Shown here: one piece after another, positions 41,236 through 64,000 of the stretch | Layout of the letters: every line of letters begins with the position of its first letter | Numbering within the stretch: position 1 is the first letter of the stretch | NCBI GenBank assembly: GCA_008632985.1 | Contig: QPGO01000206.1 | Span: 1 to 64,000, forward strand | From: Psammoneis japonica | Taxonomy: Eukaryota | Direction of reading: 5' to 3' | DNA length: 64,000 nucleotides | The notes under the pieces: generated by a model | The model's input: the letters and a program-made list of their open reading frames with translations, nothing else | Database searches by the model: none | What the model was told of the DNA's origin: nothing | Position numbers and translations under genes: made by a program

Positions 41236-41269
<34 letters not shown>
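41236..41269. repeat. (AG)n microsatellite
   Basis: Read directly from the sequence. Confidence 0.95.
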
Positions 41270-41271
<2 letters not shown>

Positions 41272-42163: not shown

Positions 42164-42324
42164 AAAAGCAGCAAAGGGCTTCCCTCACCATTTTTGCTTG
42201 TGAAATGCTATTACAGGTTGGAGGTGACGGCATCTAAATTCTGACAGGAATACAGGTACAAAATACCCTGAAGTGCATAGAGTACCGCTGGCAACCCTAC
42301 CACCCCACTAGAGACAAAGAGAAT

Positions 42325-42790
42325 TACCAATGTCGTTGCTGCTCCAACGCAACTGCTACTTTTTGGTGTGTTGTTAAAATTTCAACATGGCACTTATGGT
42401 AGATTCGACGACTTCTTCCACGAACGTCACCCTTGATTTGTTAATTTTGGGATGCACATTCTTCTGAAAATGTGTGGTTGCGTGCTGTATTGTAGTGCGA
42501 GCGGCAACATGTACACAACCGCCATGGGCGTTATCGTGGCTGACTTGAGAGCCAAAGTACAAAGACGGCAGTCCCCGCACCGACAAGAGCCGTGGGTGCT
42601 ACTGCAAAACACGTAATGATTGTTGGAAAAAATGAGGAGACTTGTAGTATTGCCGGTCTTGCTTGCTTGTGCTGTGAAAGGCCTTGTTCATCGTTGTTGT
42701 TGCCATCATCCAGGCCTGAAAGTGCACACAATTCTCATCCGCCAAGCGCACCAAAGCCAAGATGGCTCTTGCATGTGGAAACATAGTTGT
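42325..42790 (-). pseudogene. Fragment of an unidentified, probably membrane-protein gene; unmutated paralogue of 31625-32110
   Basis: Colinear nucleotide similarity with 31625-32110. Peptides NNDEQ.LSQHKQ and CFA.AP.ALV occur in both copies. Confidence 0.6.
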
Positions 42791-43634: not shown

Positions 43635-46600
43635 TTTAAATTTTTATTTGAAAGATACTCTTTCGTTTTGTCTTTTTTTTGCCAGACGTGAGCCTTCTTC
43701 TTCAACCTTGCTTGCACACCTCGTTCAGTGTGATCATCGAGCGAGAGCGAAGAAGTCAAAAATTCTATTGACGCATGGACAGACCGTGTTGGAGGGAGTT
43801 TCTGAATTTTCGAAATCTTTAGTACGAATGCCTCTGTAGATTGTACGCGCGAGGTGTTTTTCATTGTGTTCGCCGTGCATCGAAACGCGTCTTTGATCGC
43901 TCTCGCAAATCGCAGAAACAGCGTTGCTCTCAGCTACGGCATCGTCTGAGCCCCAAAATAAAATACATCACAACAAACCAACAAGTGCACTGACATGATG
44001 TGCCTGGTCCCTTCTGTGGACTCGACTGACTGCTGTTGCAGTGACAAGCCTCGAGAGTCCACAAATGCGGTCACACCTGGCACATTGTTGACACACGAAA
44101 AAGGGCTCCAGTCCGATGAATTGATCACCCGTTGTTGCACGATTTGCCACATTGTAGACGAATCCAGTGTTGATGTTGAATTCTTTGTCAGTGGCTTCTT
44201 CCCCAACAAGGGACCAAGGATTGCTGCAATTCAAAAAAATTGTGAGGGATCAAAAGATGGAAGCGCTCACGCAATTGGGACCTGGACCTGACTTGTCACC
44301 TTTGGCGCGGGCTGCTTTAAAGGTGTTTTCAGTGCTTCTGAGCTGGGCACAATGAGGAGAAGTGGAGACTCCACAAGAAAGCAGAGGTTCAAATGTGTGC
44401 ACACACCTTTCCAAGGAATGACCATGAGCAACTGCAGCACACTTTGGCCACAGCCGGGCTGCAAAGAATGAACTCCATGCCGCAAAATTATGTTGCAGTG
44501 ATGCCTCATGTGGATCAAGCAGAAATGAGCAACATGCCAGCTTGAGCATTGCATCAAAGAACAGAAGGATTGGCGCTCCCCACCTCTGTTGTTGATTTTT
44601 CCTCTTGGTTGTTGCAGGGCTGACCCAGGAAGAAGAGTCACCAGAATGGGTTGTGGCCACTGTCTGTTTGGCTCACATTGATCCTTCAAATTTGCACCAC
44701 CAGTGTCTTCTGTTTTCAAAGAGGTGTTCAGGTCCTTGGCAAAAAGATGTGGACACAGAGATTGCAGCTGTGGTGCATCAGCTGGAAACTTGTCTGCAAA
44801 ATTTGTCAAAGGATGAGCCACAGACTCAGTGTGCAGTCATGCACCCCACTGTGACAGATTTGGGCTTCACAGTCTCATGGCAGGAGGATGCAATTGCTGG
44901 CTGCCATGCTGTCAAGTGTTGCATCATTGTGCACCCTGGGTGATGCCCGCAACCCACACATTCACAGGTGGCAGTTTCAAATTGATGCTTTTCAAACAAA
45001 CCTCATTTCACGCAGCAAAAATTTTTTGCACCTGTCTTGCAGCAACCCACTTTTGGTGAGGGTTGAAATGGAGGGCAAACCTCAAGCTTCAAAAAATCAC
45101 AATGCAGAAATGCACAGAATCAGTGCCACAAGTTTTCCATCACAGGAAAATCAGCTCTGCTGTGCTGAACTGCCAAGCCCTCACAATCCTCATGCTCTTT
45201 GCAGAGTTCCCCCCCTTGGTGCCATTGCAGCCATGCTTTTTGTGCCATCAACTCAACACATGCGCTCTTGCTCATGTGACCAACCCACCACCCAGCTTTG
45301 TTCAATGCATGATCTGAAGATGTTGTTGCGCATGATTGACGTTCATTGTCAAGGGTGTCTGTAAGAGCATCTAACAATGAGCACTTTTGTGGCAGGCGTG
45401 TTTGTCAGCCAATGTGCACATGCTTCAAACAACCTGCTTCTTGTTCCCATCACATTGTTCTTGACCAATGGTGACAGCGAGGGTTGAGTGTGGTGCATGT
45501 GACTGTGCAGCATGATTGCAAATGTGCTGTGTGTGCAACACACACAGGTTGGCAATGACTGATCACATGATTGCATGAGCTGCTGTGTGCAACATTCTCA
45601 CTCAGCAACCTCACAAATCGCCCACACATCTGCCTTCTCCAAGATGACATCAGCATGGAAACTGCACCCCAAATCCATTGGCAGTGCTCTGTGTTTGCAC
45701 ATGCATGATGCAAAACATGTCAGAATGGCAAGTGCTGTGGTCGTCAATGAGTGTCAAACTCAAGCTGATTCTGGGGGCATCTCACTCATCAAGCATGAGC
45801 ACATTTTGTGCTTGCAGATGTTTGCTGGTCATCCCTGACTCTCAGTTGGATGAAAACAGATGTTGCACATCTTTTGTGGACAAAGCCATTGGCACTGTCT
45901 TTGTCTCTGCATGCAGTGACAGCTCTGACAAAGTGAGCAAATTGTCCCATGGTGGCTGCACATGCTGGAGTGAGGCTGAAAGAAAAGCTGTGACAATGAG
46001 CTGCCGTTTTTCAAGAAGTGAGATCCCTGCAAGCCTCCTTGTGTGCAGAGCTGTGTCTCCAATGCACCATGCACATGGCCTCAACATCATTTTGTGCAAA
46101 GTTGTTTTTTCATGAATGTCGCGCAATCACATGGCAAACTCTTCAATTTTTGAAAACATGGAAAAGCCACATGAGCTGGTTTCTTGCCTGGCACATGGGT
46201 CCACTGTGTTTGATTGGTGCTGTCTCAATGCCAAAGATTTCCTCACAAGCATTGCACCACATTTGCTGCAAACCCACTTTTTCTTGCAGGTTGCTTGAAG
46301 CAGCTCCCCGCCCACCTCTGAAGAGAGCAGCACACTGAAATGAGCTGTTGCAGCAAGAAAATCACACTCTCTAGTCAGAGCTGTCTCCAGCTGCCATGTG
46401 CACTTCATCTCCCATTTCAGCTTGAACAGCAGCACTGCTTTTCTCTCACACAGAGCCTGGCTGCACTTCCAAGAGAAACCTTGCTGGAGGTGGCTGGAGG
46501 AGCGCATCATCACCAAACCATGAAAGAATGGCAAGAACTGCTGAAAACCCTTCTTGCTCTGTTTGGCAATTGCCTCTGACTGGTGTTCACAAATGAGCTC

Positions 46601-47309
46601 AAACAATTTGAGCACCAATTCAGCTGCTGCCTGGAATGCTGACAAAAAAGCCAATCTGGTCACTTGTGCTGGAACCTTGGAGAGGAGTTGCTGTGTGGCA
46701 CCACCCAAATTGCTGCCACAGTGTGGCCACATTTTGCCATCGTTTTTCCTGGGTGACACATTTCACCTGGCAGCATCCATGGTCACCACATTTTGCACAT
46801 CAGGCCACATTTGGAAACGTGTGTGAAATTGCACAATGGCAGTTCCTGTCATGCAGCAACTGTGTGGACCACACCAGATCTTGATCTTGTTGAAGTTGAA
46901 CTTCGGATGCATGATGTCATCATCTGCTTTGTGCCTTGTGAGTGGTGACACAGATCTGGTCAAATCCATGTGATCTCAGGGCATTTTTTGTTGCCCAACA
47001 AATGCCCCAATGCACAAGTTTCCTGATTTGCATTTGCTGCAGAAATCAAGCAGCATGGTGGCAAAACCAATGCAACATCAAACCAACAACATCAGCTGAC
47101 ACAACACACCAAGACACCATGAGTGTGAAGACCAGGAAGATGGTCTGGCAAAAGTCACAGACAAGGTGTCATCAGCAGACAAGCACTTCCGCTGCAACTG
47201 ACATGCTGCCAGATGTCTCCAGTGTGTGGGTGGATGAGTGCCTCTCCAAGGAGGGGTGGATTGGTGGTGTGGCTGGCACAACTCTCATTGAATGCCACAA
47301 AAGTCATTG

Positions 47310-47510
47310 CTGATTTGACAAAGGTGAAGGGCACGCACATGTTGCTGTGCAAGGCCAAGACACATGCCATGTTCTTTGATGGGGTGGCGAACATTCAGAA
47401 GGCCACAAGAATTGTCGAGGTGGAGTTTCCCTGGGTTTCCTGTCCACATGGTGCCAAGCATTGCATGGCACTTTTCTTTGAAGATGTGGCTTGGCTGAAA
47501 CCCGTTGATG
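47310..47510 (+). mobile_element. hAT-superfamily transposase fragment (DUF659-like)
   Basis: MFFDGVANIQKATRIVEVEFPWVSCPHGAKHCMALFFEDVA resembles the DG-A-N-x-K ... H-x-x-x-H-x-x-x-L-F-F-x-D segment of hAT/DUF659 transposases. Confidence 0.65.
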
Positions 47511-50500
47511 CAAGTGAAACAGTCTTTTCTTCATCCACCATGTCTTTCCCAGTTGTTCTTTGCACCACAGATGCTCACACCAAGGTGCAAGAGACAAAGT
47601 TCTGCTGAGCAACAAGGTGACATGCAAGAGTGTGCTTGTTTTGCAAAGCCACACAAAAGAGCACAGCAGCAAAGCAAGGGCAGATTGAAAGCCAACAATT
47701 GTGTGAAAACATGGAAAAGCACCAACATGAGTTAATTTCTTGTCTTGCACATGTGCACCAGCAGCACTGAAAATCTTTGACAGAGCAGCTGCACTGACAC
47801 ATCATTCATTGCAAACCCACCCTGTCAGCACAAGTTGAAACAACTCTCTGCCCACCTCCAAAAACCAGCGGTGCACCATGCAAAGCTGTTGCAGCAAGAA
47901 AGTGTCCTCTCCAGCCAGAGTGCTCCTTCTCAGCTGCCATTCAGGGGCTCCATCCCCTGTTTGCTTGAAAGCAAACCATGCTGCTTTGCATTTTCCATCT
48001 TTAAATGATGGTCTTCCTCTCTCAATCATTGAGTCTGGCTTCTGATCTGAAAGGATCTTGGAGGTGGAGCACTGTCAAACCAAGAAAGAATGACATGACA
48101 AGAATGCCCATCATGCAAAGACCCTTGCTCTGCTTGGCAGTTGCTTCCAACCACCAGCACCAGCTCTGGGGCAGCTTGAAGCAACAAAGAGGAAGGGGCT
48201 GCAGAGAAGCACTGCACACAATGAGAGGTGCTGGTGGAACATCTTGTGTGAGCCAAAGCTCAGCAAAAAATTGCCAAGTGACTGCATTGTTGAGCAGCTG
48301 ATGCACTGTTGCAGAGCAAAACCTGTGTGCCCGAATGAGCTGCAATTGAAACTTTTCTCTTGCATCTTTTTTGAAGCATCCCTTGCAAACATGATTTTGG
48401 GTTGTGTGTTTGGGCTGATTGTTTTGAGTGGCAGCTGCCACAGCACATGATGTGGACCTGGCATTGTTGGAGGCCATTTGTGGCATGAACTTGCTGACTT
48501 GACATGCTTGTGCTGCCAACAATGAAGGTTTCACCACTTTGAAGGATGTCAGAAGTTTGTGAATCTGGTGCTGACATTGCCAAGAGATGGCAAAGTGGTG
48601 CCTGTCAGCTCATGCAAGCAGTGCAAAAGGGAGGGCAAATCTTGGCACTGCCTGGAGCAGCTCTGGTGGGGGCCAGCAGCCACAGCCCATGCCGGTTAAA
48701 ATCAAAAGGGGCATCTTGGAGGCTTTGGCTGGTGGCTTGAATGTTTTGCATCCTTGGTGACTGTGGTGCACATGAAAGTGCATTCCTGCACTTGTTGTTG
48801 CAGAAAGTGGGGGAAATGGAGGCACCATTTGCAGTGTGTTGTGTGAACCCAGGCTGGTGCAATGGTGTTCACAAACAATGGGGAGTGTGGCATGGTGTCA
48901 GTTGCCACTTGCCAGCATGGTGGCATTTGATGGGGGTGCTTGTCAGGAGTGCTGTGTGCTGAAGAAGGGTTTTTGGCTGGTGCTCCAGGTTTTATGCCAC
49001 AGACTCATGGCTGAGAATGAAGCTGGCTGACACAACACAGCACAGCATCTGAAATGTCAAAAGATGTGTCATGCCTCCTGGAGTTTCACAGTCAATTGTT
49101 CTTCAGTGACTTGGAGAATGCTCACAATTTTTCTGTCATGGAAACAGCAGAAAGCTTTGCTGTTCTTTGCTGCAGCAGTTTCTGTCATAGACAGGGAAAG
49201 TCCAACCCAATTTGTTTGGAAGAAGACATGGAACTCCAGGCTGCTCTGTTCTGCAATTCACTGGCACTTGAGCATCAGCCCTGGACTTGGTTGGTGGTGC
49301 TGCAGCACTGCCCCAAATGACTCTGACAGAGTGTCCATCATCATTTGAGGATGATGTCAATGTGCTTGTGACTGAGCTGCCCCAGCGAAGCATTTGCCAA
49401 CAAGGTTCTGAGAGCAAGCTGTGCTGTGTGGGCAGCATGCACACCAAGCTTGTCACAGGATGAGCTCCTTGAATGGGCTGGCCACCATGTCATGTTGCTC
49501 ACAGTGGCTGCTGTGGTGCAAAACAATGTCAGTTGTGTCTCGGAAGCAACAAAGATGTGCAAGAGAAAAACAAGCACAGCCACACAACTGGCAAGTCACA
49601 CCATGGCTTCACTGTAGCCAACCCAAACTGAAGCTGTGAAATGTGAGATGTGTTTGGGTTGGTCTGTCTCAAGAAAACAAAAATGCAAAGGTTTGTGACT
49701 TGTGAATCTTGTTTCTCTGTGTGCTTGGGCAGTGGCAGAGATGGGGCCCTGAGCCTTGGTGCAGAGCTGGTTTTGCAATGACAAAAGGATCATCACTTTC
49801 TCTGGTGTGTTGCAACAAGGGGACAAAATGTTGCCTGGCCAAAATGAAATGGAGTGTCCAGCAACTGAAATGTTTGATGTTGTGTTCAAGCAAATGACGC
49901 AAAACCAGAAATCACACAAGCCAGCAACAATGATGGCTCCATTCCAAATGACAAGGTCCTGACTTAGAGACCATGTCAAAACAAGAGCAGGAACCTTTTG
50001 TGCAGCCCAGCTCTCATGCTGTTCAAGAGCAGAGGTGGCACCTTTGACTGTGGTCAGCAGAGAATCAACACCTCCACCTCTGGCAAGGGCATGAGCCATC
50101 AGTCAATGAAGTTGACAAGGTGCATGCTTCCCATCTGCAGCCTCCCCAAACCCATCTCCTGGGGTTGTGTTGGGAATTGAGAGGATGGTCATGACAGCTG
50201 TGCCCTTGCTCTGGCTCAATTTTGGGGTCTCCATTGATTGTGAGCATGCTGCTTGCATCAAGAGATGTGTGAATGTCTCTGGTTGATGAGCACCACTCCA
50301 CCACAGGCCAGTGTCCAGGACAACTTGGTCAAACCAGTGTCTGCTGGCAAACATGCAGCACTTTCTGAAGCCTTGCCCTCTCTTCCTGAAGTTCCTCTTC
50401 ATTTGTGAGTTGGAGATTTCTTTGGTCTTTGTCAGCATCACAACACACTCCTGCCCATTGTCAAATTCTCATGGCTCAAATTTCATGTTGAAATGGTGCA

Positions 50501-52544
50501 TCAGAATCCAATCCTCTTCAGATTCTTGCCTCCAAAATGAAGCTGGCCTCACACTCACACTTGATGTCATCTTTGGAGCCATGGGTGCATGTGACCTGTG
50601 GCTTGACACTGATGGTGTGAGAGAGCTGGGTCTCCAGCATTGAGTGCTTGGCAAGAAGCTGCTTGAGCCTTTCAGTGCGTGGGTGTGTCATGGTGGCAGT
50701 CCTCTCCCTGCCACACAGCAGCATCCACTCGTTTTTGCTCAACACCAGGCCTGGATTGGTGGGCCACATCACCACATCTGCAACCTTTGGGAGCAACTCT
50801 TGGTCAGCTGGTTCAACAAATTGAACAGCCACATCTTTTTCTTTCATGACTTTCTTGACCAACTCAATGGAACCAGACAGACAGGCAGCTCTGAGAAGAG
50901 CAGCTTTCAATCTTTGCTGTTTTGCAAAACTTTGAGCCCACCTTTGACCAATCAATGCAACTGCAGTTGAGAAGACTGACTTTGAACAACTCAGTTGTTG
51001 CACAATCAACCTCCTTGGAATGAAAAAAAAGCAGCTTTGATTGCCAAATCAATGACTTCCTTTGACTTGAGGCACCGGCAAAGTCTCACAATTTTGATCA
51101 GTTTTCCTTTTTGAAATGGTTTTGGAATGTTTCATCTGGTCTTGAATGAAAAGAGTTAATTTTGGCGACCAGCATTTTGACAAAAGTGTTCTGGCATGAC
51201 ACCCTCACAAGCTTCTGCAACAAATCTGCAGTTGTGAAAAGCAAACCTTGCTTGGCACCAAACAAAATCTCAGCAATGCACAGCTCATGATGGTTTCACA
51301 ATCAATCACATCCATGATGTGCAAACAAACAATGAGGTGCAATCACTCCGCCCACACCATTCCAATGGAAGCCATGGGCCAAGCTTGAATGACATGGAAG
51401 ACTTCCAAGGGGAAGAAAAAAGCAGGCAGCTGACGGGTGCGGAGCTTGAATGCAACATGCAGCTTTCAAGAACATCTCCAATGGCATCTGCTTGTTCAGG
51501 TGGCTGCCATTCCAAACAAACATGGTGCCCCCAACGTGTGTTTGCTTGACGAGTTGACAGAGTTGACTGGTGCCTTGGGACCACACACACCATGCAAAGG
51601 CATTTTGAGACTGTCACATTTGCCAGTTTTGCCGGAGCTTTCTGGATGGTTGCCAATTTACATGCATTCAAATGAATCAAGACTGCTCCAGTGGTGTCAG
51701 GGTGAGTGCTCCCAGCACACTCACTGCACAGGTGCCATGCAACAGATTGCCAGCCAGTCTTCAAATGAGTGGCTCTTCGTCAATGAGTGCTCAGGTGACA
51801 AGAGAAAACATCCAAACAACAGGGAGTGCAATTCTTGGAAGTGCCGTTGCACATCCTGCTGTCACATTGTTCCCAATGTTGTGGAGAGCAGTGGCCACAG
51901 AGAAAATCATCTTTCTTCCATGTTGGGTTGCAAGCATCAGAACCTCCATCCAAAGACCATTTGTGGTGCTCCAAGGAAAAGTCGAACGAATGTTCACTCC
52001 AAACCCGGTCATTCCTTGCACTTTTTGGAACACTTTGCAGCACAGGAACCTTCAGATGGACATTTCACAGACCTGTTTTCTGGCATGACAAGAAAATCCT
52101 CAAACCAAATGCTGCATCCTTGGAAATGACACCCAGTCACATGTGACAAAGCTGATGTGAGTGATGGCCTTGGACTCAACTCTGGTCCTGTGAGGGGCAG
52201 TTAGAGAGTGAGTGTTTTTTTTCATTCTCAACATTTTTCATCCAACGTCTGTTGGCAATTGACTCATGTTGCTGCTTTTGCTCTGTGATTGTGGCATGCA
52301 CCTGAGCAGTCCATTCAACATGAGGCATCTGCCATTGGATCCACAACTGCGAGAGAGATTCCTTCTGATGGGAGAAATGCGTTCGTCTCAGATGAGGATC
52401 ACGTCCAAGGCAACGGCACCCAAGGTGGCCTCTGCATTGCAAGATGCCTTTTTCAACTCTGATGCATTTGCTTCAAATCAACACAGCGAGGTGTGTGCAC
52501 AACAACTGGAGGAGGATCATGCAAGTGTTTCCATCCCAGATGAT

Positions 52545-53175
52545 CCCACTCACGAAACGGCATCAGCCATGGTGCCTGTGGCACAAGAGACTTGTTCCAA
52601 TGAAGAAACTTCTGCACCAAAACAATGCATTGGCTGGCATGGTTGAAGAGTGCATGCAAGCACGAGAGTCCCTCATTGCAGGTGCCAGTGCTGCTGTTGT
52701 TCTTGTCATTGTTCCAAGGCAGTCCACTCAGATGGGAAGTGGTGCACTCAACAATGATGCCATTCAGAAGAGGGCATCAGCCGTGGCACCTTTGGTGCAA
52801 GAGATTCCTTCTGATGATGATGCTTGCACTGGTGTGGTTGAATCGTTGGCGGAAGAATGGGTGGGTGAAGAATGCGTGCAAGCACGAGGATCCTTCATTG
52901 TGGATGCCAGCGTTGCTGTGGCTGCTGTCGTGGTTCCAAGACAGTCCCCTCTGCTGGGTGATGGTTCCTTCAACAACCATGAGACGGCATCAGCCATGGT
53001 GCCGTTGGTGCAAAAGGCTTGGTCAAACAATGGCGCTGCTCTTCCAAATCAATGCAGTGGCTTTGCTGAAGCATTGGCAGCAGAGGAACAGGTGGAAGCA
53101 GAAGGCATCCAAGTGCCTGCATCCCTCATTGCAGATGCTGGTGCTTCTGTCATTCCAAGGCAGTCTGCTCAGCTT
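52545..53175 (+). repeat. About 3 diverged ~220-235-bp coding-type tandem repeats
   Basis: EEC.QAR.S.I...S.....VPRQS at ~52645, ~52867 and ~53101; ETASAMVP occurs twice. A separate 108-bp-period duplication (GGSDVEAFKQ.QECFQ) lies at 53420-53575. Confidence 0.75.
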
Positions 53176-54471
53176 GGGGAAGCTCTTGGCAGTGTGCATC
53201 TTCTTGCCACTGATGGGCAAACTGTTCAAAGGTTGGCCAGAATCTTGAGCTGTCGGGGAAGAGTCATGCGGCAGTTGGAGTGCTTTCGGGAGTTTAGAAA
53301 CAGGAATGCTTTCAAGCTTGGTGGGCAACTCAAGGTGCACCCAAGGAGTTGCAAATGGTTTCCAAAGGCAAGAAACTTCTCAAGCTTTGTGTGTGTCTTA
53401 ACAACTCTGATGCCCCATGGTGGCTCTGATGTTGAAGCTTTCAAGCAAAAACAGGAATGCTTTCAAACTTGGCTGGCAACTCACAACTGCCATGATGCTT
53501 CAATCCACTTGCCCCACATGCACTGTGGGGGCTCTGATGTTGAAGCTTTCAAGCAAAGACAGGAGTGCTTTCAACACATGTTGCAGATTGTTGCAAACAC
53601 CAAAATCAGTGCTCCTGCACCCCTTTTGTTGAAGCTTTCATGCCAAAGGCAAGAAGGTTCTCAAGCTTGGCAGGAAATCCAAACAACTCTGTTGTCCCAA
53701 TCAGACCATTGTCATCATGAAGAGCTGTCTGACGTTTTGTTTGTGAGGAAAGGCGGTGCAATCATCCAAAAAGGTCATTTTTTGTTGAAATCTTGCGATG
53801 CGTCGGCATGAGTTGCTGTCACGAGAAGGCAATTTCCTTTGAAAACAAGGATTTCTTGTCATTTCTCGTGCATCACATCTTTTCTTAATCGAAGTAGAAA
53901 GAACGCCTGCACCTTGAATTGCACCAGAGGATGTTGGCCGCGTCGCAAAGACGATCTTGGAGGGTGACAAGGGTCGTTTCTCGACTCGCCGCGCGATGAT
54001 TGTGCGGGGATTCGGAATTTGTCGCAAATTTTGACATGTCGCAAATTAATTTTTCGATTCGGTAGCTAGCTCTCTACTACCTACTAGCTAGTAGAAGTAG
54101 CTACTACTAGCTAGAGGGCCCTACATGACTCACCTCCGGCCGTTCCGCCATTGCCCCGCGTCTGTCCCTCCCCCCGCGCCACTACCGGTACATAGGTGAC
54201 GTTGCACGTGAACTTCTCACGCGCGCGTACTGCTACATGTCAAGTGCAATTCTGTGCTAGAGCTGCTAGTAGCGGCCCGATAGAGCAGAGAGAGATACCT
54301 CGTCTTCTCTATTACTGGTAGAGACAGAGAGTTTTCGATGCCAATAATGTGACTAAAGTAGCTTCTCTCTATGAGAATCTTCTATCCGCGCTGCATGGTA
54401 CCACGCAGTACGAACATGACGAGCAAAACGTGTATAAAGTGAATTAACCACCAATACCAAAACTAATCTCA

Positions 54472-57400
54472 TCAGCCGTAGACAGTCATGAGCTCGTCAC
54501 ATCGCTGCTGAATATCCGAGGAATTACACACTGACCGCACATGAGTCATTCTCCGAACGTCCTTGAGCTTTGCGGCTTCCTCCAGGGCTCGATCCCACAT
54601 GCTAACCTCGCAAAACAGATCATATCTTTCTTCGACCGAAATCACGCGGTCGATAAAATGCATAATGTAAGACACGTCTTGCTTTCCACGAATGGCAGCA
54701 ACAGCGAACGGCTTGTACCCGATTGGAGGCTTTGTCTTGGAATCAGCAAGAGCTCTGAGGTGGTCCCATTGTCCACTTTGTGCCAAGGCGCGCACCTTGA
54801 TGTGCCACAAAATCTTTTCCGGTACTCGAAACTTCTTTGCCAGCTTGTCAGCATCACTCAAGAGCCGATTCGACTCGCGCTGGTTCACTGAAGCGTGCTT
54901 GATTACAGAAATAATGGTGGACGAAACCGACGAGCTTTCAGGAAGAAAGTCACTGGAGCCATACTTTTTTCGCAGTATCTACATACAACAGCAGCAAGAA
55001 TTAAACGTGAGCATACTGGTCCGTGACTGCTGGAAAACAGCGGCTGCCCTTACCTCTTGATCGTTTCTTAACTCAAGGTAATCGTCGGTGCATGACTTGT
55101 GGAATGCGGTTTCTTTTCCAAGACCAAAGACACGGGAGGCTTCCTGGAAACAAAAGATTGCAGAAATGAAAACAGCTGTGAGGACAGAGTTCTAACGCAA
55201 ATGCCCGCCACCATGCATGATCGTCGAATGCTTACAATTAACATGGCTTGCTTTGCTCTTTTGTCGTCTTTCGATTCCAAAGCTCGTTGCACCACAGCTA
55301 TCCCCGCATCTCCAAACTTTTGTCCCCTCAAGAGCAAAGCCTTGACACTTGCGACATCAGGGAGTGTGGCTAAATACTGCCTCTGCAGATTGAAGGCTTC
55401 GAACGTAAACTTCGAAACGACAGTTCCCAAAAAATTAGTTGGACCGAGATCCATCGATGAAGCCATGCACACTTTTTCGTATTCCATGAGGGCGTAAAAA
55501 ACAAAATCACCATCCCTAAGAGGAGAAGCAAAACATTTGTGCGAGTTGTATGAGCAAACGAGAGTAATTCATTTCCCCCTTTTGAGAAAGAAACGTACCT
55601 TGCTGCCGTCGCAACAGCCACTGCATCAGCGTATGATCCAATCGAAACCAATGCTCGAACCTTGTCGGCAACACTCGACTCTAGCATGAGCAAAAGTTTA
55701 GCTACACCAGGACGACCTGCAGCGTTGGCAGCCAGAGCTACTGCCGCGTACCCACCGCGAGTTTGTAGAGGACTACCGCTTATGTCGACATTTGCATTTT
55801 CATTGATAATTTTGATGGCGTTTTCAGCAGTTTCCGCGTCGCTGTGTGACTTGTCATTGGAAACGAGGGCTATGGCCTTGGAGGAGCGAGCCACCAGTTG
55901 CACTGACTTGGGAAGAGAAAGGTATTTACTAATGCAAGTTGCAAGTGCAGGGCGTTTCATGGCGATTAAGCGAGCCACGACGCCAGTGCGGTAATCGCGT
56001 CGTGCTGAGAAGCCGTAAGAACAAACCCGACAGCTGGATGTCTCAAAGCATTCAAGATTCGTAGTTTCCTCGCCGCTGCAACAAACTTTATGGCCGTGGG
56101 AGACGGCATGGTTCGCCCGTCGCTTGCAGTGGTCGATCCACCCATGATTTTCCGCTGCTCTGCAGTGTCCTTGTAGCTAAAGTGCATCCCATACGAAGCA
56201 GCACGCAAAAGTCGCTTCTGCGTTAAAATGTCAAACTCCAGCGTTGCAGCCTCTGTGCAAGTTTCAATGGCTTCCAACAACATACCCGTCTTTGTAATCG
56301 CCCGGGCGGCTTCATCGGATGATGGCGACCCTGCTGCAAACGCATCCGAAGCGTCAAGCAACATTGCCGACGGTTCGATTGAACCAATCCGCATAAGTGC
56401 CGCAGTGGAAGGTGGGACTCGCTGCAAAAGCTCAACGGACGAATCTGTGACAACTCGACAGCAATCAATCTCTGGCACAATATACAAGTGATCGGCATCT
56501 TCAAAGGGGAATCGAAGCCAGTCACCATAAGGTCCGACCATTAAAACGCCCAAATTCTTCCAATGCAGCACAACACTGTCTTCCCCACACCATTTCATTT
56601 CAGCAGGAGGTGCCGATGATCCTTCGGATGTATCAAAGTCCAATACCTTGGTTTCAAAAGACGTGGAAATGACTGTTAGAATGGATGCCTGTGTAAAGCA
56701 TGCCAAGAACCGTCCGTTTGGAGCAAAGGTCATCGATACAATCGGAGATGAAATGCGTGACCGACAGTCCACGTCAACAATATCCATATTGACACTGTTT
56801 ACAACCACGACGGAATTATCCGACGTTGAAAGAAAGATCTCAGGGTGTCGGGAGTTTGTGTGAAACCGGGGTAGCACGGCCAAGGCGACATAGGAATAGT
56901 AATTCTCACTAAAACAAGCATTATAGCGAAAGAGGGCGACGCGTTCAGTTCAAGAGCAATGACGACAACCGACCGAATGTCCACACGATTTACCTTGCAT
57001 GAGCCGCCGTCGCCAAGGGCGTCACAATAGCATAATGCGGGGGCAAAGTGTCCGTTTGACTGGACGCGGAACCAAACATTTCGTCGCTGACCGCCGCGCC
57101 ACCAGCATTCGAGACTATTTTTCGAGAAGCCAAATTGGCGCTGTCTGCATAGCTGGCATCATCGTGGTCGTCAAAGAGTTCGACAAGCGCACACTGCATT
57201 GACGATGCCAATACGGCGACTCCACCTTCATACACACATGCCTGAAGCAACTCGGTGCCTCCACCCTTTTTCCCGGAAGGAATAATGTAGAATGGTGGCA
57301 GCACCATGGCACCCCGCAAATCGTAAGTTATACAAAGTGAATCACGCATGACCACGACAATGGTCATTCGGTCGGTAAAGCCGAGAGTCAATACATTGGA

Positions 57401-58060
57401 CGCCAGCACATTCTTTTCCAACAATTCCCTAGGAGGAAATTCGACTCGTGCCAAGGGTCGACCGGCATTGGTAGCAATGCGCAATTCAGTACAAGCCATG
57501 GCTCGCGTGGTGGTATCTGCACCTAGAAGCGGGATAGTCATGGCGCATATGGGACCACCATGAGGACAACCAGCCACCTTGGTCGTAGTTGTTGTATTCA
57601 ACAATTCGCGAATGTCTCGGGCATCTAAGAGACTTGAACGATGCTGACTGACAAAAGCAGGAGGAAAGGCAGCCAATCCGTGATTGAGCGAGTCCATAAT
57701 CCTATCGTCGTGCTCTTTTTCTTCCTTATCAGTCTCTTGCTCTCTGTGGTTCCAGCTAATGTTGGAGTAAACAGGGACCCGGCGGTACGGCAAATCTCCA
57801 AGGTACTGCCACGAAGCCTCAACCGGAATGTCATCCTGCGGTGTTTCATCCAGATCCACCTCCTCGTCGTCATCTGGTACGTCATAATCGTCTTTTGTTT
57901 CCTCGAAGTAATCGTCGCTGTCGGTCTCGAACGGATTTGTCGTTGCGGCTGCAAAGGGTTTGCTGTCAGATTCCATCATGGGCGACGCAGAAACATCAGG
58001 ACTTGCCGCTGCTGGATCGTCGTCGAACGAGTCCTCAAACGGATTCGTCCCACGAGGCAT
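54472..58060 (-). CDS. VPS16: Vacuolar protein sorting 16 (HOPS/CORVET subunit), multi-exon; 1-nt frameshift near 55989
   Basis: VAGCPHGGPI, FAPNGRFLACFT, WCGEDSVVLHW, PEIDCCRV, QKRLLRAASYG, LRILNALR, KKFRVPEKILWHIKVRALA..GQWD, PPIGYKPFA. Confidence 0.93.
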
Positions 58061-58480
58061 AGTGAATAAGGTCAATTAGGTAATAATAAATACAGAGAGA
58101 GCGTCTTTGTGATGTTGGCGAAACGTTCCGCATAAACTGAAGCAGTGACAGCAACGGTGCGTTCTGCGGCGACTTCCAGGCAGAAATGAAATCGCCATCG
58201 CGCAATGCAATCACAAGAGCACCGGTAAAAACGACGTGCTGGTTCGGCCGCCCACCCGTCATCGAGTTCGGGCCGCAGACCGCAGGTTTCGATTTCGAAA
58301 GATTTTCATTCTGGGGGAAGTCTCCAGCTGAGCTCTCTGCAGTCGGCTCCACTGTGGAAACAATGAAAAAAGAAACACGCACGCGGAACCAACTCTCATC
58401 ATCAAACAAAACTGGAGGCCGTATGATGGTCAAGAAGGGACCAATTCCCGCATCGGAACTCGAGTTCGGCACAGCACAAC

Positions 58481-59150
58481 TTGACCCGGAAGAGCTCAGT
58501 GCCATTGCTTGACAACCAAGGAACAATGATCAATGGCTTTTGCACAACCTTGCACTTGAACTCATTGGCAAACAAGCATCATGACAGCGGGGTGCAGTGC
58601 AGTGCGGATGACTTTGTTCGCTCTCTCCATGTTGAGCTAAAAAGGCATGGCCCGGAAGGGGGTTGGGCATCATTCCTGAACAAACTGCAGGAACAAGAAA
58701 AAGTGGAAACAGATGTTGAGAAAGACAAATTTAATCTTCACACAAGTCTTCCACAGACCGCACGAAGCTGGCCATTGGGCTTTGTTGGTTGTTGACCGAG
58801 CCAGACCTGGACAGGATCTGTTTTTGTGTTTGTTGACTCGGTGCCAAATTTCCACAAACGGTCGCTGCTTGACCTGCAGAACATGGTCACCTCTGCACCT
58901 TTCATCAACACCCAGGCCAAGCAGATGAGGGCTCAAATGTCTTGACAAGCAAGGCACACAAATGATTGTGGCACACGGATGTGTTGCACTGCGGCAGCTC
59001 ACACGAGAACTCTGAAGCTCCAAGGGTTTGCAAGCAAAGAATCTGCTGGAGCAAGAAAGGGCATGACAGAAACAGTGAGCAGCATGTCTGTGTGGCATGC
59101 ACCTGACATGTCAACAAAGGATTTGGGTTGTGCGGGGCAGAAGCACATTT
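58481..59150 (+). pseudogene. Ulp1/C48 cysteine protease relic (a domain often carried by DNA transposons)
   Basis: TMINGF; LIFTQVFHRPHEAGHWALLVVD (His 58773); VFVDS (Asp, ~58835); Q..TNDCG (Cys 58967). Frameshifted and hypermutated. Confidence 0.7.
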
Positions 59151-60148
59151 TGGATTGCCTCAAGCATGACAAACTTGCCGTTTCTTTTGATTGACAAGTC
59201 TGCAAACTTGCCATTCTTCAGCTTCAAAGCATCACAAGCCACTGTGGCTTGCTTGCATTGTTCTAATCTGCAAGCATGACTTGCTCTCATGTCTTCAGTT
59301 TCATGGCACCACATGAGATGAGCCCGTCTCCTCCATGCTTGCTCACCTGGCCCGTGCAAAGCGATGGAGATGAGTCCGCTCCAACCTGAAAACAGAATGG
59401 GAAGTTACGGATGATGAGGAAGATGCTGCTGCTCCCAATGAAGAGGCTGAAGGCAATGTGGAATTGCCCAGCGATGTTGAATGAATGCTCAGATCAATGC
59501 AGTCATGTTGGACTCACAGTTGACACCGAGGATCATTGCAGAGTTGCAATCAATCTGAATCAACAACAGCTTGTGGCATGTCAATCAACACCTCAACACC
59601 TGCCGGCAGCTCTCTGACATTTGATCAGAACACAAAGATGTTCTCTTTCACCGTTGTAAAGTCACTGGCCATGTTGTTGTTTGACAAGTTCATTGTTGAT
59701 CCTTCCTCTCTCGCGACAACTTTTCGAAATGCCCTTTCATTCAACTGACAAGCGTGAACAAAGGCCCATCAATGGCGAAATTGCCATCCACGTCACTCTT
59801 GAGTGCCAGTGTGAGGACTGTCTGGCAGATCTTTTCAGCTGTCGATTGTTTCATCTGACCTGTTGAACTCACTCTCATGTCTTAGAAGCTTTTGAGAACA
59901 TCACAAATTGTCCAATGGCAGTGCCTCGCATTGTGATGGCAACTGTCAAGAAGAATCGGCGTGCGACAGAGGTTTTTGGGCCTGCTGTCGTTGTTCACCT
60001 GCAATGGGGACAGCAACAGTTCGATCTTGAAGGTGTGAGGGACTCAACAATGGAGCACCATGGTTTGGGATCAAACAATGCCCACATGCTTTGTGCTTCA
60101 TGCCAATGCTAACTTGTTGCTGCAGATTGGCACCTCCAATGACAGCAC

Positions 60149-62460
60149 TCAACACCCGTTGCTTGCAACAATCTCCCAGAAAAGAGACTGCGCAATGCAC
60201 CTCACAATCCCGCCCCTCAATGGAGTGTTTGAGAATTGTTCATCCCCAGAGCCCTCTTCGGTGCACTCGCAGCAGTCGAACCTCCAAAAAGGGCAAACTG
60301 TCGGTGCGGCTCGAATGAAATCGAACAGCAGACAACTTTCATTCAAACTCGCCAACCGGAGATTTACAATCTCCTCCAGCACCTTAGAGGACGACGAATT
60401 TTTGACATCCTTCAACCACTCCCAATGTCCGACCTTGTTCCTTTCACAGAGACAACCAATTTCGTTGCGCACCTTGGTCATCTCGGCAAGAGCGTAGTTC
60501 GGATGCCCAAGCCAAACTTTGCAGAGGGAGCGATTTCGACCCTCACTCAACAAGGTCTTGATTTCTTCGGCGGTGCCAAACGTGTCGAAAGCACTTCCGA
60601 ACCCAAGAATCAGGGTTTTCAATGTCGAATTGTCCGTCAATGCTTTGACAATCACATGGGCACTCTCTTCCAACATTTTACATTCCAGCTGGAGTTCCTC
60701 AATTGCATCGTTTGCCAAAAGCATCGCCTTGAAGCAATTTGCCGCTTCCAACCCAATCGTGTCACCCGGGGTGTCCTGAACAATTTGCAAAGTCTTGAGA
60801 GTCCTGTTGTGATGTTCAAGAGCTGTCGCAATGAGCTCAAGATCAACACTGCAAGAGTCTTCCATGTAGAGATTCAGACGCAGCTCAGTGAGAACCGCGT
60901 TGTCCGCAAGTCCCTCGGCAATTGCACGACAAAGTTCAATGGTCCACTCACTGTTGACAAAGAGAGCAAGTTTCTTGATGGACCTGCTGGCCAGCAGAAT
61001 TGATCTCAAGTGAGTTGCGCCCACAGGCCCAACTTGTTGGTCACAATCGATCTCCAATGTCTCCACAGTTTGATTGTCTCGAAAGGCCGTAGCGATCTGT
61101 TGACCTTGATTCCATTGAAGAACTTTATCTTGCCCTCTTCATTGTTGCCCTCGACAGCAACATCAGCGTGCACGTCCCCAACTTGTTGGTCACAATCGAT
61201 CTCCAATGTCTCCACAGTTTGATTGTCTTGAAAGGCCGTCGCAAATGCCTCAAACCCTTCCATTTGGAAGGGATCAAATCCAAGCACGAGGTGCCACAAT
61301 GAAGTGTTGTGTCAAAGACCTCGTCCCACCGGATGCAAGAATCGATCGTGAAGACTAACTTCATCATGTAAAAGCTCGAGCCTTTCGAGCGTTCCATTCT
61401 CAGCAATGGCATCACCCAATGCATCTGCTGCATTTGGGCCACAAGCAGCGTACGAAATCATCAAGTTCTTCAGCGATCTGTTGACCTTGATTCCATTGAA
61501 GAACTTTATCTTGCCCTCTTCATTGTTGCCCTCGACAGCAACATCAGCGTGCACGTCCCCAACTTGTTGGTCACAATCGATCTCCAATGTCTCCACAGTT
61601 TGATTGTCTTGAAAGGCCGTCGCAAATGCCTCAAACCCTTCCATTTGGAAGGGATCAAATCCAAGCACGAGGTGCCGCAATGAAGTGTTGTGTCGAAGAC
61701 CTCGTCCCACCTGATGCAAGAATCGATCATGAAGACTGACTTCATCATGTAAAAGCTCGAGCCTTTCGAGCGTTCCATTCTCAGCAATGGCATCACCCAA
61801 TGCATCTGCTGCATTTGGGCCACAAGCAGCGTACGAAATTGTCAAGGTTCTTCAGCGATCTGTTGACCTTGATTCCATTGAAGAACTTTGTCTTGCCCTC
61901 TTCATTGTTGCCCTCGACAGCAACATCAGCATGCACGTGCAGTTCCTGCAACCTGCGACAGCTGCCCATTCCATCCCCGAGACCATGCCACCCTTCCTGC
62001 ACATGAGCCCACACCAACCATTGGTCAGTTCCCAGTGCTCGATCCAACACAGAAGCGCCGCCAGGGCTCAAAGCGGAAAAACATTTCAAACGGGGCACTT
62101 TGCAATGCTCCAGAAGTGTGGACAGAGCCACCACGGCCACGTCGTCAAGCCGTGCATTATCGCCACTGTGTTCGCGCAGGTCGATCGTGACAATTGTTTT
62201 GGGGGTCGCATCGCTGTGGACAATGTCCACCATGTCGCAGAGCACTTTCGTGGTTTCCTGGATTTGGTCCTGAGGGTTGTCTCCGAGGGCAATCCAAATG
62301 GTGCCGAAACAACGCGCGTTTCTGAAGGCATCAAGAAACACTTCTTTGCCATCTGGACGACGCAACACCAAATCCCATTTGCTCGCGTCATCCTCTGTTT
62401 GATGAATCTCAAAAGAGGGAGGATCGGGCCCGAAAAAGTGTCTCACCAAATGAGTCATGT
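60149..62460 (-). pseudogene. RNI-like leucine-rich-repeat protein gene (NLRC3-like, diatom-type), disrupted
   Basis: Repeated L..N..L..L.L units (GLADNAVLTELRL, LEHHNRTLKTLQI, LTDNSTLKTLIL, IAENGTLERLEL, LRHNTSLRHLVL) and a C-terminal LLFDFIRAAP. TGA at 61312-61314, frameshift near 61846, and an internally deleted repeat copy. Confidence 0.8.
61028..61938. repeat. Young 381-bp tandem duplication: two full copies (61177-61557, 61558-61938) plus one internally deleted copy (61028-61176)
   Basis: The ORFs at 61125-61442 and 61506-61823 are near-identical. The two full copies differ by about 9 substitutions and 1 indel. Confidence 0.95.
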
Positions 62461-62819
62461 TTGCAAAGTGACGGAACTGAAGCAGTAACAACTGGGGGAA
62501 CGACGACGGTCTAAAGTGAACGACTAACTTCAAACTGTATGTCGATAGCTTCGAAGGTACAGCACAGGGCGCCGCCGTAATGTTACCGGTGCTACCGGGA
62601 CTACCGGTAGGTGCAGCGCGCTGTGCTGCTGTCCGCTAGCTGAAGATTTTTGATGAACGCTGGACAGACACGTCTTCTTTTGCAGCAGGCCAGCGCGCTG
62701 GCTGGAGACTTCCCAGTCTTCTTCCGTACCACTTACAGACCTCCCAGAAGGGAGTGGAGATCTCGAGACGCTTTACTTCCCCAATTCCATACCGGTACAT
62801 CCAACAAACTTTCACCACC

Positions 62820-64000
62820 ATGACGCCGAGACTTGTGTATTCGTCGACGTTGCAACGATTGGCACGTAGTATCCATGTTTCTCGCTCTCGTAGCGTGAAT
62901 GTGAGAGCACTGAGTGCAGTTAGTCCGAGTTTCAGTTTCACGGGCCAAGAAACGAACTCCGTGCTTGAGGATGCAACCTACCGCTACTATGCGAAGCAGT
63001 GTTTCTCGACCGCAAAGGACGACAAGAACGAGCAGACGGAAGCAAAACCCGATAAGGAGGTAGCCCCCAACACCAACACGACATCCATGGAGTTCCAGGC
63101 AGAAACTCGACAGCTCTTGGATATTGTGACTCATTCTCTCTACACGGAGAAGGAAGTTTTTCTACGTGAATTGGTGAGCAACGCGAGCGATGCTCTGGAG
63201 AAACTCCGACACCTCCAATCAGGAGACCAAAGCACCATTGAGGCAGACTTGCCACTGGAGATTCATATTGAAACCGATGAAGTGAACGGAACTGTCACCA
63301 TTCGTGATACAGGAATTGGATTGACTCGCGACGAAATGATGACGAATCTGGGAACAATTGCAAAGTCAGGTTCAAAACAGTTTGTGCAGGATATGGCGCA
63401 ACAAGATACCGACATGCTGGGTGGAGGCATTATTGGAAAATTTGGTGTGGGCTTTTATTCTGCATTTATGGTCGGAGATTCAGTTGAAGTACGTTCCAAA
63501 TCGGCTCTTGCAGAGAACAATGACGAAACAACCGTGCCGCAAGTGTGGACGTCCACGGGCCACGGAAAATACGATGTTTCAGACTTGTCACCTGATATCC
63601 GCCAAGACCGCGGATCTTCTGTTGTGATTCATCTCAAGGATGATCAGCTTCAATACAGTGACGAGAAAACAATCGAGAACATCTTGAAGAAGTACTCAAA
63701 CTTTGTCGGCTTTCCAATATTCCTTAATGGGAAACGCGTCAACACCATGGAGGCAATCTGGACGAAAATGCCATCCGAAGTCAAGGATGAAACATACACA
63801 GACTTTTACAAATTTGTCGCTCACGCCTATGATGAGCCGCTGGACAGGCTGCATTTCCGTGCAGACGCTCCTTTGGAAATTCAAGCACTGCTCTTTATCC
63901 CATCGTTTCATTCGGAAAAGTATGGAATGAACCGTATGGAACCGGGGGTTTCGTTGTACAGTCGCAAAGTGCTGATTGAATCCAAAAGTCCGGATATTTT
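62820..64000 (+). CDS. TRAP1: Mitochondrial Hsp90 (TRAP1/Hsp75), 3' part runs beyond the window
   Basis: Arg/Ser-rich presequence MTPRLVYSSTLQRLARS; MEFQAETRQLLDIVTHSLYTEKEVFLRELVSNASDALEKLR; DTGIG; NLGTIAKSGS; IIGKFGVGFYSAFMV; KKYSNFVGFPI. Open to the window end, which is why it is absent from the ORF track. Confidence 0.95.
   Translation, partial: MTPRLVYSSTLQRLARSIHVSRSRSVNVRALSAVSPSFSFTGQETNSVLEDATYRYYAKQCFSTAKDDKNEQTEAKPDKEVAPNTNTTSMEFQAETRQLLDIVTHSLYTEKEVFLRELVSNASDALEKLRHLQSGDQSTIEADLPLEIHIETDEVNGTVTIRDTGIGLTRDEMMTNLGTIAKSGSKQFVQDMAQQDTDMLGGGIIGKFGVGFYSAFMVGDSVEVRSKSALAENNDETTVPQVWTSTGHGKYDVSDLSPDIRQDRGSSVVIHLKDDQLQYSDEKTIENILKKYSNFVGFPIFLNGKRVNTMEAIWTKMPSEVKDETYTDFYKFVAHAYDEPLDRLHFRADAPLEIQALLFIPSFHSEKYGMNRMEPGVSLYSRKVLIESKSPDI

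Follow-up and report, generated by a model that had tools for sequence, protein, structure and literature searches.

How does the DNA between two ordinary genes come to lose nearly all of its TA dinucleotides while keeping much of its CpG, and why does the loss end where it does? The 64-kb stretch of diatom DNA analyzed here (the window) contains such a block between VPS16 and TRAP1, and its composition, internal copies and edges appear to reveal, in this diatom, a mutation process that targets TA and is distinct from the ordinary decay of methyl-cytosine.

Limits and composition of the TA-poor block

Segmentation by a two-state HMM on TA positions delimited four TA-poor blocks in the window (B1 to B4). 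The block considered here, B4 (58134..62485, no strand), has the same limits as in the original prediction and is TG/CA-rich by the dinucleotide table. It holds 23 TA, an observed/expected ratio (o/e) of 0.08 as compared to 0.58 in normal DNA, and 23 or fewer TA were found in none of 675 normal windows of 4352 bp; its 180 CG correspond to an o/e of 0.68, and TG and CA together are raised. The edges of the HMM blocks are sharp to within one TA spacing, with TA o/e in the flanks of 0.53-0.63. Across the blocks, TA o/e is 0.03-0.08, a depletion near saturation, and CG o/e ranges from 0.11 to 0.68 vs 1.00 outside, with G+C unchanged (0.47-0.52). The estimated losses in B4 of 138 TA and 85 CG are roughly equal to the 198 TG and CA gained; losses and gains balance likewise in the other three blocks.

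The right end of B4 (61835-62485) contains one TA (62158) and 35 CG, bearing out the single TA and dozens of CpGs first read there. Its CG o/e is 0.79 and its TG+CA o/e is 1.49, a value reached by 0.4% of normal windows, and one or fewer TA occurred in none of 1217 normal 651-bp windows, for which the minimum was 11. The left edge (58135..58480), with 2 TA and 28 CG, is likewise TA-poor and CpG-rich as claimed, and two or fewer TA were found in 2 of 1278 normal 346-bp windows. Its CG o/e (1.13) and TG+CA o/e (1.17) are both normal, the latter being close to the normal median of 1.18 with no gain of TG/CA over the 346 bp, and TA conversion is for that reason not positively shown in this edge. 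Between them, the segment 58481..60148, which has no recognizable ORF and is partly dispersed repeat, retains 7 TA (o/e 0.06) with a CG o/e of 0.39 and a TG+CA o/e of 1.74. The earlier view that the center had lost most of both dinucleotides holds for this segment but not for 60149-61834, where 13 TA (o/e 0.12) accompany a CG o/e of 0.79.

Separable losses of TA and CpG

When o/e values were profiled in 500-bp windows, nine windows combined a TA o/e of at most 0.16 with a CG o/e of at least 0.5, and none combined a CG o/e below 0.5 with a TA o/e above 0.16; TA-poor windows can keep CG, and the converse was never seen. The estimated losses in the LRR part of B4 are 84% of TA vs 20% of CG, and those in the other three blocks are 90-95% vs 66-88%. 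The two losses are uncoupled, as proposed from the sequence, and because CG is largely kept where TA is gone, the loss of TA is not a by-product of completed CpG decay. TA conversion that is complete where CpG is still largely present is, by the same token, independent of finished 5mC decay. Two companion claims, that TA conversion runs faster and spreads further than CpG decay, fared less well. The first is plausible but unproven: since a 381-bp duplication within B4, 4 of 19 CG and 1 of 4 TA sites have changed, a similar per-site frequency, although this comparison understates the TA rate because the remaining TAs are mostly in refractory contexts. The case for the second is weak, the left edge being CpG-rich with few TA but lacking any TG/CA gain.

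These profiles bear directly on whether a single process, such as a deaminase that accepts both the A of TpA and the C of CpG, could hit both self-complementary pyrimidine-purine steps, with B4 caught early, after the preferred TA had been exhausted. TA and CG losses always share domains, every window with a CG o/e below 0.5 is TA-poor, all differences between the tandem copies described below fall at CG or TA, and enzymes of the ADAT2 type have a reported deaminase activity on DNA toward A as well as C (cited in the accessible part of bioRxiv 10.64898/2026.01.13.699255). Such a process is nonetheless unlikely, as TA loss is 80-95% throughout, whereas CG loss lies anywhere between -13% and 88%, and 250-bp windows within B1-B3 show no correlation of TA o/e with CG o/e (Spearman -0.02 to 0.11). 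CpG decay in methylated repeats, moreover, requires no special enzyme, and the portion of PMC12344493 available to us describes diatom 5mC as DNMT5-type and restricted to TEs in the model diatom. The loss of CG to TG or CA in the window resembles such decay in being found only in repeat or insertion blocks, with a CG o/e of about 1.0 in neighboring genes; it differs in that TE decay, as described there, leaves both the TA loss and the TA-poor, CpG-rich LRR part unexplained, and methylation of this locus is presumed.

An LRR pseudogene and its copies

The right part of B4 is occupied by an RNI-type LRR pseudogene (60152..62458, minus strand), recognized by ORFs and homology in three frame pieces (62458-61796, 61851-61315 and 61138-60152). 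Using phmmer against the PDB, the pieces matched LRRC34 (9.5e-8) and the NOD2 LRR (5.9e-6). HMMER returned 244 matches to the LRR gene, the best at 5.7e-17 and 35% identity, with RanGAP-like and NLRC5-like proteins among the named ones; the gene also matched Atlas LRR_6 clusters, some from diatoms, which we treat as a lead only. No Pfam LRR model rose above its gathering score, and no LRR family was found for the three pieces even at E ≤ 1. Pfam also gave no credible family among 15 ORFs of 58.0-60.5 kb and no viral domain in B4, and a word-based homolog search with the LRR C-terminal ORF gave no match. The ORF is broken by a 1-bp insertion near 61846, an in-frame TGA (61312..61314, minus strand) and a frame change near 61093-61138. 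What had been called a host-type LRR gene hit by the process is therefore eukaryote-type and RNI-like, but it is a pseudogene within a 4.34-kb, repeat-bounded segment with related copies in the sample. On its coding strand TG outnumbers CA (224 vs 161, as compared to 974 vs 1067 in normal genes), a hint of transcription-strand bias that Leu-rich codon content could also explain; the other blocks are nearly symmetric.

The pseudogene includes a 381-bp unit in tandem: copy C (61091..61471), copy B (61472..61853; 382 bp, with the extra G near 61846 that shifts the frame) and a partial copy A (61854..61938). Copies B and C differ by substitution at seven positions, four of them in CG (three transitions and one transversion), one in TA and two in a single CA-vs-TG dinucleotide, with no difference at the other 333 positions. 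At the position of the in-frame TGA, located from the ORF end and the copy alignment, CG is retained in copy B and CA is found in copy C, and the TTTATC of copies B and C is TTTGTC in copy A. We assign polarity to such single TA/TG differences by parsimony and the zero background, and the assignment is qualified to that extent. A repeat shared between B2 (31626-32030) and normal DNA (42322-42712) gives the same pattern: of the 14 TA that the normal copy contains, 13 are replaced in its B2 counterpart, 9 by CA and 4 by TG, and 16 of its 19 CG are likewise replaced by TG or CA, with 38 of its 47 TG and 21 of its 25 CA kept. CG to TG/CA transitions are concentrated in the blocks, these 16 being joined by the three between the tandem copies.

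Duplication might itself have been the trigger. A RIP-like, homology-triggered defense would have edited B4 because it is duplicated, through its LRR paralogs, tandem copies and dispersed repeat, and not because it was inserted or silenced. The 381-bp tandem duplication fits such a defense, as do the many same-sample contigs that match B4 at 80-95% likeness: of 177 contigs aligned to B4 in run X1, 47 did so at 99% or more, 18 at 95-99%, 51 at 90-95% and 61 below 90%; diverged contigs of the sample also aligned within the dispersed-repeat part (58425-59026). Against it, a duplicated pair outside the blocks (41735-42163 and 54237-54681) is untouched; its members share 87% identity across 447 aligned bases and lie in windows whose TA o/e values are 0.98 and 1.25. 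All 14 TA are intact in the repeat copy that lies in normal DNA (42322-42712), and its B2 partner has none. TA loss is also even over the whole of B4, including parts without internal repeat. We regard this explanation as improbable. In fungal RIP, C becomes T chiefly in CpA, which generates TpA. RIP and the process seen here are alike in that transitions accumulate within limited regions, inactivate DNA that is repeated or inserted, and can strike duplicated genes, but here TpA is destroyed and G+C preserved, whereas RIP yields a TpA excess and a fall in G+C, and RIP mutates every duplicated copy, unlike the three unmutated copies just described.

A direct repeat at the block edges

On the left, B4 is adjoined by the first exon of VPS16 (56993..58060, minus strand; ATG 58060), identified from the ORF list and from Pfam matches to Vps16_N and Vps16_C on neighboring ORFs. 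On the right is TRAP1, the mitochondrial HSP90 (62820..63998, plus strand; ATG 62820), whose best homologs are diatom proteins (at most 71% identity), which places the source of this DNA among the diatoms. Both genes have normal composition, and their ATGs are 74 bp and 335 bp from the respective edges, so the block does stop just short of the two divergent starts, as first observed. The edges are crossed by independent assembly contigs from one sample, with one difference over 57563-58538 and none over 61901-62742. The runs listed as containing this DNA numbered three, all from that sample, and no RNA run was among them. In run X2, a contig matches 57563-58190 without difference; the run also holds spliced VPS16, on a contig that may be RNA-derived because it lacks an 85-nt stretch that begins with GT and ends with AG when read on the strand of the gene.

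A repeat search identified a 16-nt direct repeat bounding B4, a feature that is new here. The left copy, AACTGAAGCAGTGACA (58135..58150, plus strand), is in the TG state, and the right copy, AACTGAAGCAGTAACA (62475..62490, plus strand), is in the TA state, its TA at 62486 being the first beyond the block. When 2971 pairs of 50-bp windows were drawn at random, one gave a 16-nt match with at most one mismatch. B2 is flanked by a 22-25-nt repeat, with an equally good match in 0 of 1492 random pairs. Because the direct repeat bounds it, B4 has the appearance of DNA inserted into the VPS16/TRAP1 promoter region and not of a resident host gene; together with the related copies in the sample, the repeat points to an inserted, repeated segment, and the simplest reason for the block stopping near the two starts is that it was inserted between them. 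We could match a 16-nt target duplication to no transposon class, and searches of B4 for a terminal inverted repeat, a poly(A) tail or a mobile-element domain found none. Metagenomes were scanned for orthologous TRAP1 loci that might show an empty site or a conserved VPS16-TRAP1 pair. A first scan revealed no such locus; a profile scan yielded 80 loci, of which about seven were diatom-like and short, tblastn matches to VPS16 or LRR were 0 of 80, and the TA-poor block was absent from all nine loci profiled.

The tandem copies and the flanking repeat differ by TA/TG state, which suggests that the TA change occurred in place, after duplication. ADARs are an animal enzyme family that acts on RNA and hyper-edits the double-stranded RNA of repeats. 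Editing before integration, ADAR- or APOBEC-style on the RNA or cDNA intermediate of a retroelement, would explain why the block equals the insertion: the limits of the block fall at the flanking direct repeat, and the changes resemble ADAR hyper-editing in being A to G with a preference for a 5' U/T neighbor (ADAR preference per the accessible text of bioRxiv 10.64898/2026.01.13.699255). This history is very unlikely, given that TG and CA are nearly strand-symmetric (1438 and 1300 in B2, 1192 and 1127 in B3; the strand check in B4 gave 375 and 456), that copies made in place by tandem duplication differ in TA/TG state, and that the flanking repeat, which derives from the host, is converted in one of its copies. 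The change here is fixed in DNA, on both strands and continuing in place, unlike ADAR hyper-editing, and the mutations described for Bigelowiella natans in the available part of the same preprint arise in integrated DNA during culture.

TA loss as mutation

The number of TA per kb in the LRR frames is 1.8, 2.3 and 2.7 for codon phases 1-2, 2-3 and 3-1, vs 8.8, 8.8 and 15.8 in 11 normal ORFs. Tyr makes up 4 of 729 residues in the LRR pieces vs 123 of 4685 in normal ORFs (Fisher P = 1e-4), and Cys 3.57% vs 1.96% (P = 0.009). The phase counts and the shortage of Tyr give an indirect answer to the objection, raised with the original prediction, that unmutated LRR paralogs might be just as TA-poor through codon usage. 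That the LRR gene and its surroundings are natively TA-poor by codon usage or foreign origin, with no mutation process, is scarcely credible, for although Tyr is at or below 0.69% (a threshold slightly above the pseudogene's 0.55%) in 11 of 150 LRR homologs among the matches listed and the left edge lacks a TG/CA gain, all codon phases and 2 kb without an ORF are equally TA-depleted, the TG+CA o/e of 1.43 in the LRR part is reached by 0 of 912 normal windows, and recent copies differ in TA/TG state. Judged from these sequence comparisons, the loss of TA in B4 is mutational, rewriting TA to TG or CA.

The TAs that survive are also distinctive, in a way not previously noted: 70 of 90 lie in TTA/TAA contexts vs 500 of 1305 in normal DNA (OR 5.6, P = 2e-13), where random back-mutation from TG/CA predicts 47.6% (P = 8e-9 vs observed). 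Such a bias would be an enzyme-like footprint.

Proposed explanation

B4 is probably an LRR-pseudogene insertion that subsequently underwent an in-place, TA-targeted process and a separate, slower CpG decay. A 4.34-kb segment, comprising the RNI-type LRR pseudogene and a dispersed-repeat fragment, would have landed in the divergent VPS16/TRAP1 promoter region of approximately 420 bp. After insertion, a region-limited process would have changed A:T to G:C at 5'-TA-3' on both strands (TA to TG and TA to CA), saturating quickly, sparing mainly TAs in TTA/TAA contexts and going no further than the inserted or silenced segment itself. The decay of CpG to TpG/CpA would act within that domain as a second and slower process, presumably because 5-methylcytosine of the TE type deaminates, and is far along in the older blocks and the repeat fragment and approximately 20% complete in the LRR part. 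Candidate causes of the TA change would be an adenine deaminase acting on DNA or thymine oxidation, which sequence cannot separate because TA is palindromic. The order of events, the methylation and the enzyme are what we infer from the patterns described above.

B4 offers three handles on the mechanism: TA conversion with CpG still largely in place, a domain that ends at an insertion junction, and the sequence preference of the surviving sites. We tentatively extend the explanation to the idea that diatoms and chlorarachniophytes might share an old, insertion-delimited DNA-editing defense. It would turn TpA into TpG/CpA on both strands, earlier than cytosine-methylation decay and independently of it, would stop at insertion junctions and would leave a footprint in which ATAT and (A/G)TA(C/T) are erased and TTAA is spared. 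If so, TA-free, CpG-rich segments such as the LRR pseudogene would be its youngest victims, usable for dating insertions and in the search for the enzyme.

Comparison with Bigelowiella natans

In a full-text literature search, TpA to TpG/CpA hypermutation was found described only in a 2026 preprint on B. natans, with no report from a diatom. There, integrated NCLDV and virophage DNA is subject to TpA-targeted hypermutation, with the signature measured in mutation-accumulation lines (Mettrop et al., bioRxiv 10.64898/2026.01.13.699255). As far as the accessible portion of that text goes, the two systems have in common that TpA changes only to TpG or CpA, on either strand; that discrete genomic regions alone are affected, with normal DNA on either side here; that TpA depletion with CpA+TpG enrichment in window clusters forms the long-term footprint; and that many affected ORFs are unannotatable, some having host-type domains. 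They differ in host, a diatom (Stramenopiles) here and a chlorarachniophyte (Rhizaria) there, and in degree, with TA o/e of 0.03-0.08 here vs a Rho of 0.45 in the B. natans NCLDV region. In B. natans viral DNA is targeted, whereas no viral domain was found here and the process is known from its sequence footprint. The same portion of the preprint has no mention of CpG, diatom, boundary or context; the accompanying CpG decay, the flanking direct repeats and the TTA/TAA survivor bias go beyond it.

A near-saturated footprint in a diatom suggests that TpA hypermutation is widespread in the SAR supergroup, and the process may help to form the 'dark' DNA that resists annotation in ecologically dominant algae. 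In B1-B3, Pfam placed none of 92 ORFs of 90-149 aa in a family above cut-off, the longer ORFs gave one sub-threshold RVT_2 match, and a word-based homolog search with a 471-aa ORF in B3 (52396-53808) gave no match. TA-free DNA loses the stops TAA and TAG and so acquires long spurious ORFs on both strands, which can mislead gene callers.

TA-poor blocks in the window

The window is nuclear DNA from a eukaryote, with ~48% G+C (the top homologues of its TRAP1 gene are exclusively diatom proteins, at ≤71% identity), and in 500-bp steps it splits into normal DNA and four blocks. Normal DNA, that outside the blocks, has observed/expected dinucleotide ratios (o/e) of ~0.58 for TA, ~1.0 for CG and ~1.16 for TG/CA; in the blocks, whose base composition is as in normal DNA, TA o/e is 0.03–0.08 and TG and CA reach up to 1.5–1.9. 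Block limits were defined by a two-state HMM using TA positions only, which returned 6256–10165 (B1), 29453–41472 (B2), 43965–54046 (B3) and 58134–62485 (B4, the block under study), the last base-exact with the original prediction. B1–B3 total 26 kb, with TA o/e of 0.03–0.06 and CG o/e of 0.12–0.34; the sole Pfam signal in them was a sub-threshold Copia-type RVT_2 match at 7170–7769, and Pfam recognised no family in B4. The outer 250 bp of most block edges are richer in CpG than the interior. A tandem array of ~190-bp units with 78–82% identity lies within B2 (37515–38440). A large internal repeat, 18061–19462 and 19660–21081 (66% identity over 1.4 kb), lies within or beside a long minus-strand ORF ending in a DnaJ domain.

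TA loss in B4 is mutational

With normal DNA as the baseline, B4 has a deficit of ~138 TA and ~85 CG and an excess of ~198 TG+CA, and loss and gain are balanced in the other three blocks too (1047 vs 999, 854 vs 879, 291 vs 289). Tandem copies of 381 bp have seven substituted positions, each at a CG, a TA or one CA-versus-TG dinucleotide, and no differences at the remaining 333 positions; a partial third copy carries TG at a site that is TA in both others. In a repeat pair with one copy in B2 and the other in normal DNA, 13 of the 14 TA and 16 of the 19 CG of the normal copy have become TG or CA, and its TG and CA are mostly retained in the B2 copy. Editing solely before integration is an unlikely source of these changes, since conversion is symmetric between strands and differs among copies that arose in place. 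TA loss in B4 is thus mutational, and the coding frames speak against codon usage as its source: the leucine-rich-repeat (LRR) reading frames show ~five-fold TA depletion in all codon phases (1.8, 2.3 and 2.7 TA per kb vs 8.8, 8.8 and 15.8 in normal ORFs). Of the 729 residues of the conceptual LRR protein, 4 are Tyr, compared with 123 of 4685 across 11 normal ORFs (P = 1e-4), and Cys is elevated (P = 0.009); Tyr codons are not removable by codon choice.

The surviving TAs are biased in context. TTA/TAA contexts hold 70 of the 90 in the blocks (17 of 23 in B4 alone), compared with 500 of the 1305 TAs of normal DNA (P = 2e-13), the share expected under random regeneration from TG/CA being 48%. 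ATAT occurs 0 times in the blocks and 103 times in normal DNA, and TTAA 23 and 62 times; across all four blocks, TTAA is 5.4-fold and CTAA 2.6-fold over-represented among survivors. This bias may represent the sequence preference of a putative enzyme.

Uncoupling of TA and CpG loss

Nine 500-bp windows combine TA o/e ≤0.16 with CG o/e ≥0.5, and no 500-bp window in the whole 64 kb has CG o/e <0.5 with TA o/e >0.16, which upholds the predicted uncoupling of the two losses. Estimated loss of TA and CG is 84% and 20% in the LRR part (the right portion of B4), 89% and 61% in the B4 centre, 90% and 66% in B1, 95% and 82% in B3, and 93% and 88% in B2. Together, these windows and this series indicate that TA conversion proceeds without waiting for CpG to decay. 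CpGs in the LRR part are decaying as well: its CG o/e of 0.80 ranks within the bottom 0.3% of normal windows, and the 381-bp tandem copies differ by four CpG changes. The simplest reading is that the TA process would be fast and saturating and the CpG process slow, the LRR part being the youngest material. Per-site change since the tandem duplication is alike for CG (4/19) and TA (1/4), in small numbers and with the remaining TAs a refractory subset.

Within B4, 61835–62485 has, as predicted, one TA (62158) and 35 CG, all 1217 normal windows of equal length having at least 11 TA; 58135–58480, the left edge, likewise has 2 TA and 28 CG, a TA count this low occurring in 2 of 1278 normal windows. 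The expectation that the centre had lost both dinucleotides holds for 58481–60148 (TA o/e 0.06, CG 0.39) but not for 60149–61834 in the LRR part (TA 0.12, CG 0.79). TG+CA o/e is 1.49 in the right 651 bp, 1.43 in the LRR part and 1.74 in the centre, all at or beyond the normal range. At the left edge it is 1.17, vs a normal median of 1.18, so TA conversion is not positively demonstrated there, and the claim that it spreads further than CpG loss was too strong.

B4 as a probable insertion with a dead LRR gene

A 16-nt direct repeat, AACTGAAGCAGT[G/A]ACA, lies at both edges of B4 (58135–58150 and 62475–62490); an equally good match occurred in 1 of 2971 random window pairs, and its sole mismatch is TG within the block and TA outside. 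Both edges are spanned by contigs from an independent assembly of the one sample that contains this DNA. Without the segment, the divergent starts of VPS16 (ATG 58060) and TRAP1 (ATG 62820) would lie ~420 bp apart. From these features we read B4 as an insertion between the two genes, which would explain why, as originally noted, it ends just short of both; no transposon class was assignable to it. B2 is flanked by a 22–25-nt direct repeat, CCACCATCGACGTCA[A/C]CAATTC (29400–29424 and 41496–41520), ~28 bp beyond each TA-poor edge and equalled in 0 of 1492 random window pairs.

RNI-type LRR ORFs run from 62458 to 60152 on the minus strand, with matches to LRRC34 (9.5e-8) and the NOD2 LRR. They have 244 library matches (top 5.7e-17 at 35% identity), the named ones being RanGAP-like, NLRC5-like, rotifer and dinoflagellate proteins. 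An LRR gene is affected, as predicted; taking it for a resident host gene was mistaken, as B4 looks like an insertion. The gene is dead: near 61846 it carries a 1-bp insertion, at 61312–61314 a TGA that arose at a CpG, and near 61093–61138 its frame changes. No convincing ORF was found in the 2 kb to its left. Diverged contigs from the same sample match portions of the left part of B4 and of the LRR part; related copies therefore exist.

An exact 19-nt repeat with GCTAGAGGGCCCTACA lies just beyond the B2 left edge (29352–29370) and the B3 right edge (54108–54126), embedded in CTAG/GTAG-rich stretches, with 41575–41620 noted alongside. Windows immediately beyond blocks are exceptionally TA-rich (o/e 0.98 and 1.25). 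A boundary element is one possible reading, the remnant of a larger nested insertion another.

Comparison with known processes

RIP can be excluded, since it generates TpA and since, outside the blocks, duplicated stretches are unaltered here. A ~430-bp duplication with 87% identity, flanking B2 (41735–42163) and B3 (54237–54681) on their right, overlaps the VPS16 3′ end; both copies are TA-rich and unmutated, so duplication by itself is no trigger of TA conversion.

TA erasure of this kind has been described only once, in another phylum: a full-text literature search found as sole relevant work a 2026 preprint on Bigelowiella natans (10.64898/2026.01.13.699255). According to its text, 231 of 302 mutations in mutation-accumulation lines fell within integrated NCLDV and virophage DNA and were, with one exception, A>G or T>C at TpA; 124 genomic clusters show depletion of TpA together with enrichment of CpA+TpG, and an ADAT2-like deaminase is the proposed enzyme. 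That text, supplements aside, makes no mention of CpG, diatoms, boundaries or flanking context; the B4 locus adds the relation to CpG, a junction-limited domain and a sequence preference. In a model diatom, 5mC is reported to be limited to transposable elements (PMC12344493), consistent with the CpG half of the pattern here.

Reading frames and VPS16 transcripts

TA-free DNA, having no TAA or TAG stops, contains long ORFs on both strands, such as 60233–61000 (+) and 61733–62485 (+), of 251–256 aa and antisense to the LRR gene, and many in B1–B3. Such ORFs arise artefactually from the mutation process and would lead gene prediction astray. A contig from X2, one of the sequencing runs of the single sample containing this DNA, omits 85 nt at 56908–56994, bounded by GT..AG in the orientation of VPS16. 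This is the splicing-out of a VPS16 intron; X2, despite being recorded as 'DNA?', therefore probably derives from RNA. A second X2 contig covers 57563–58190 and reaches 56 bp inside B4; the VPS16 5′ UTR or promoter may thus lie within the CpG-rich left edge.
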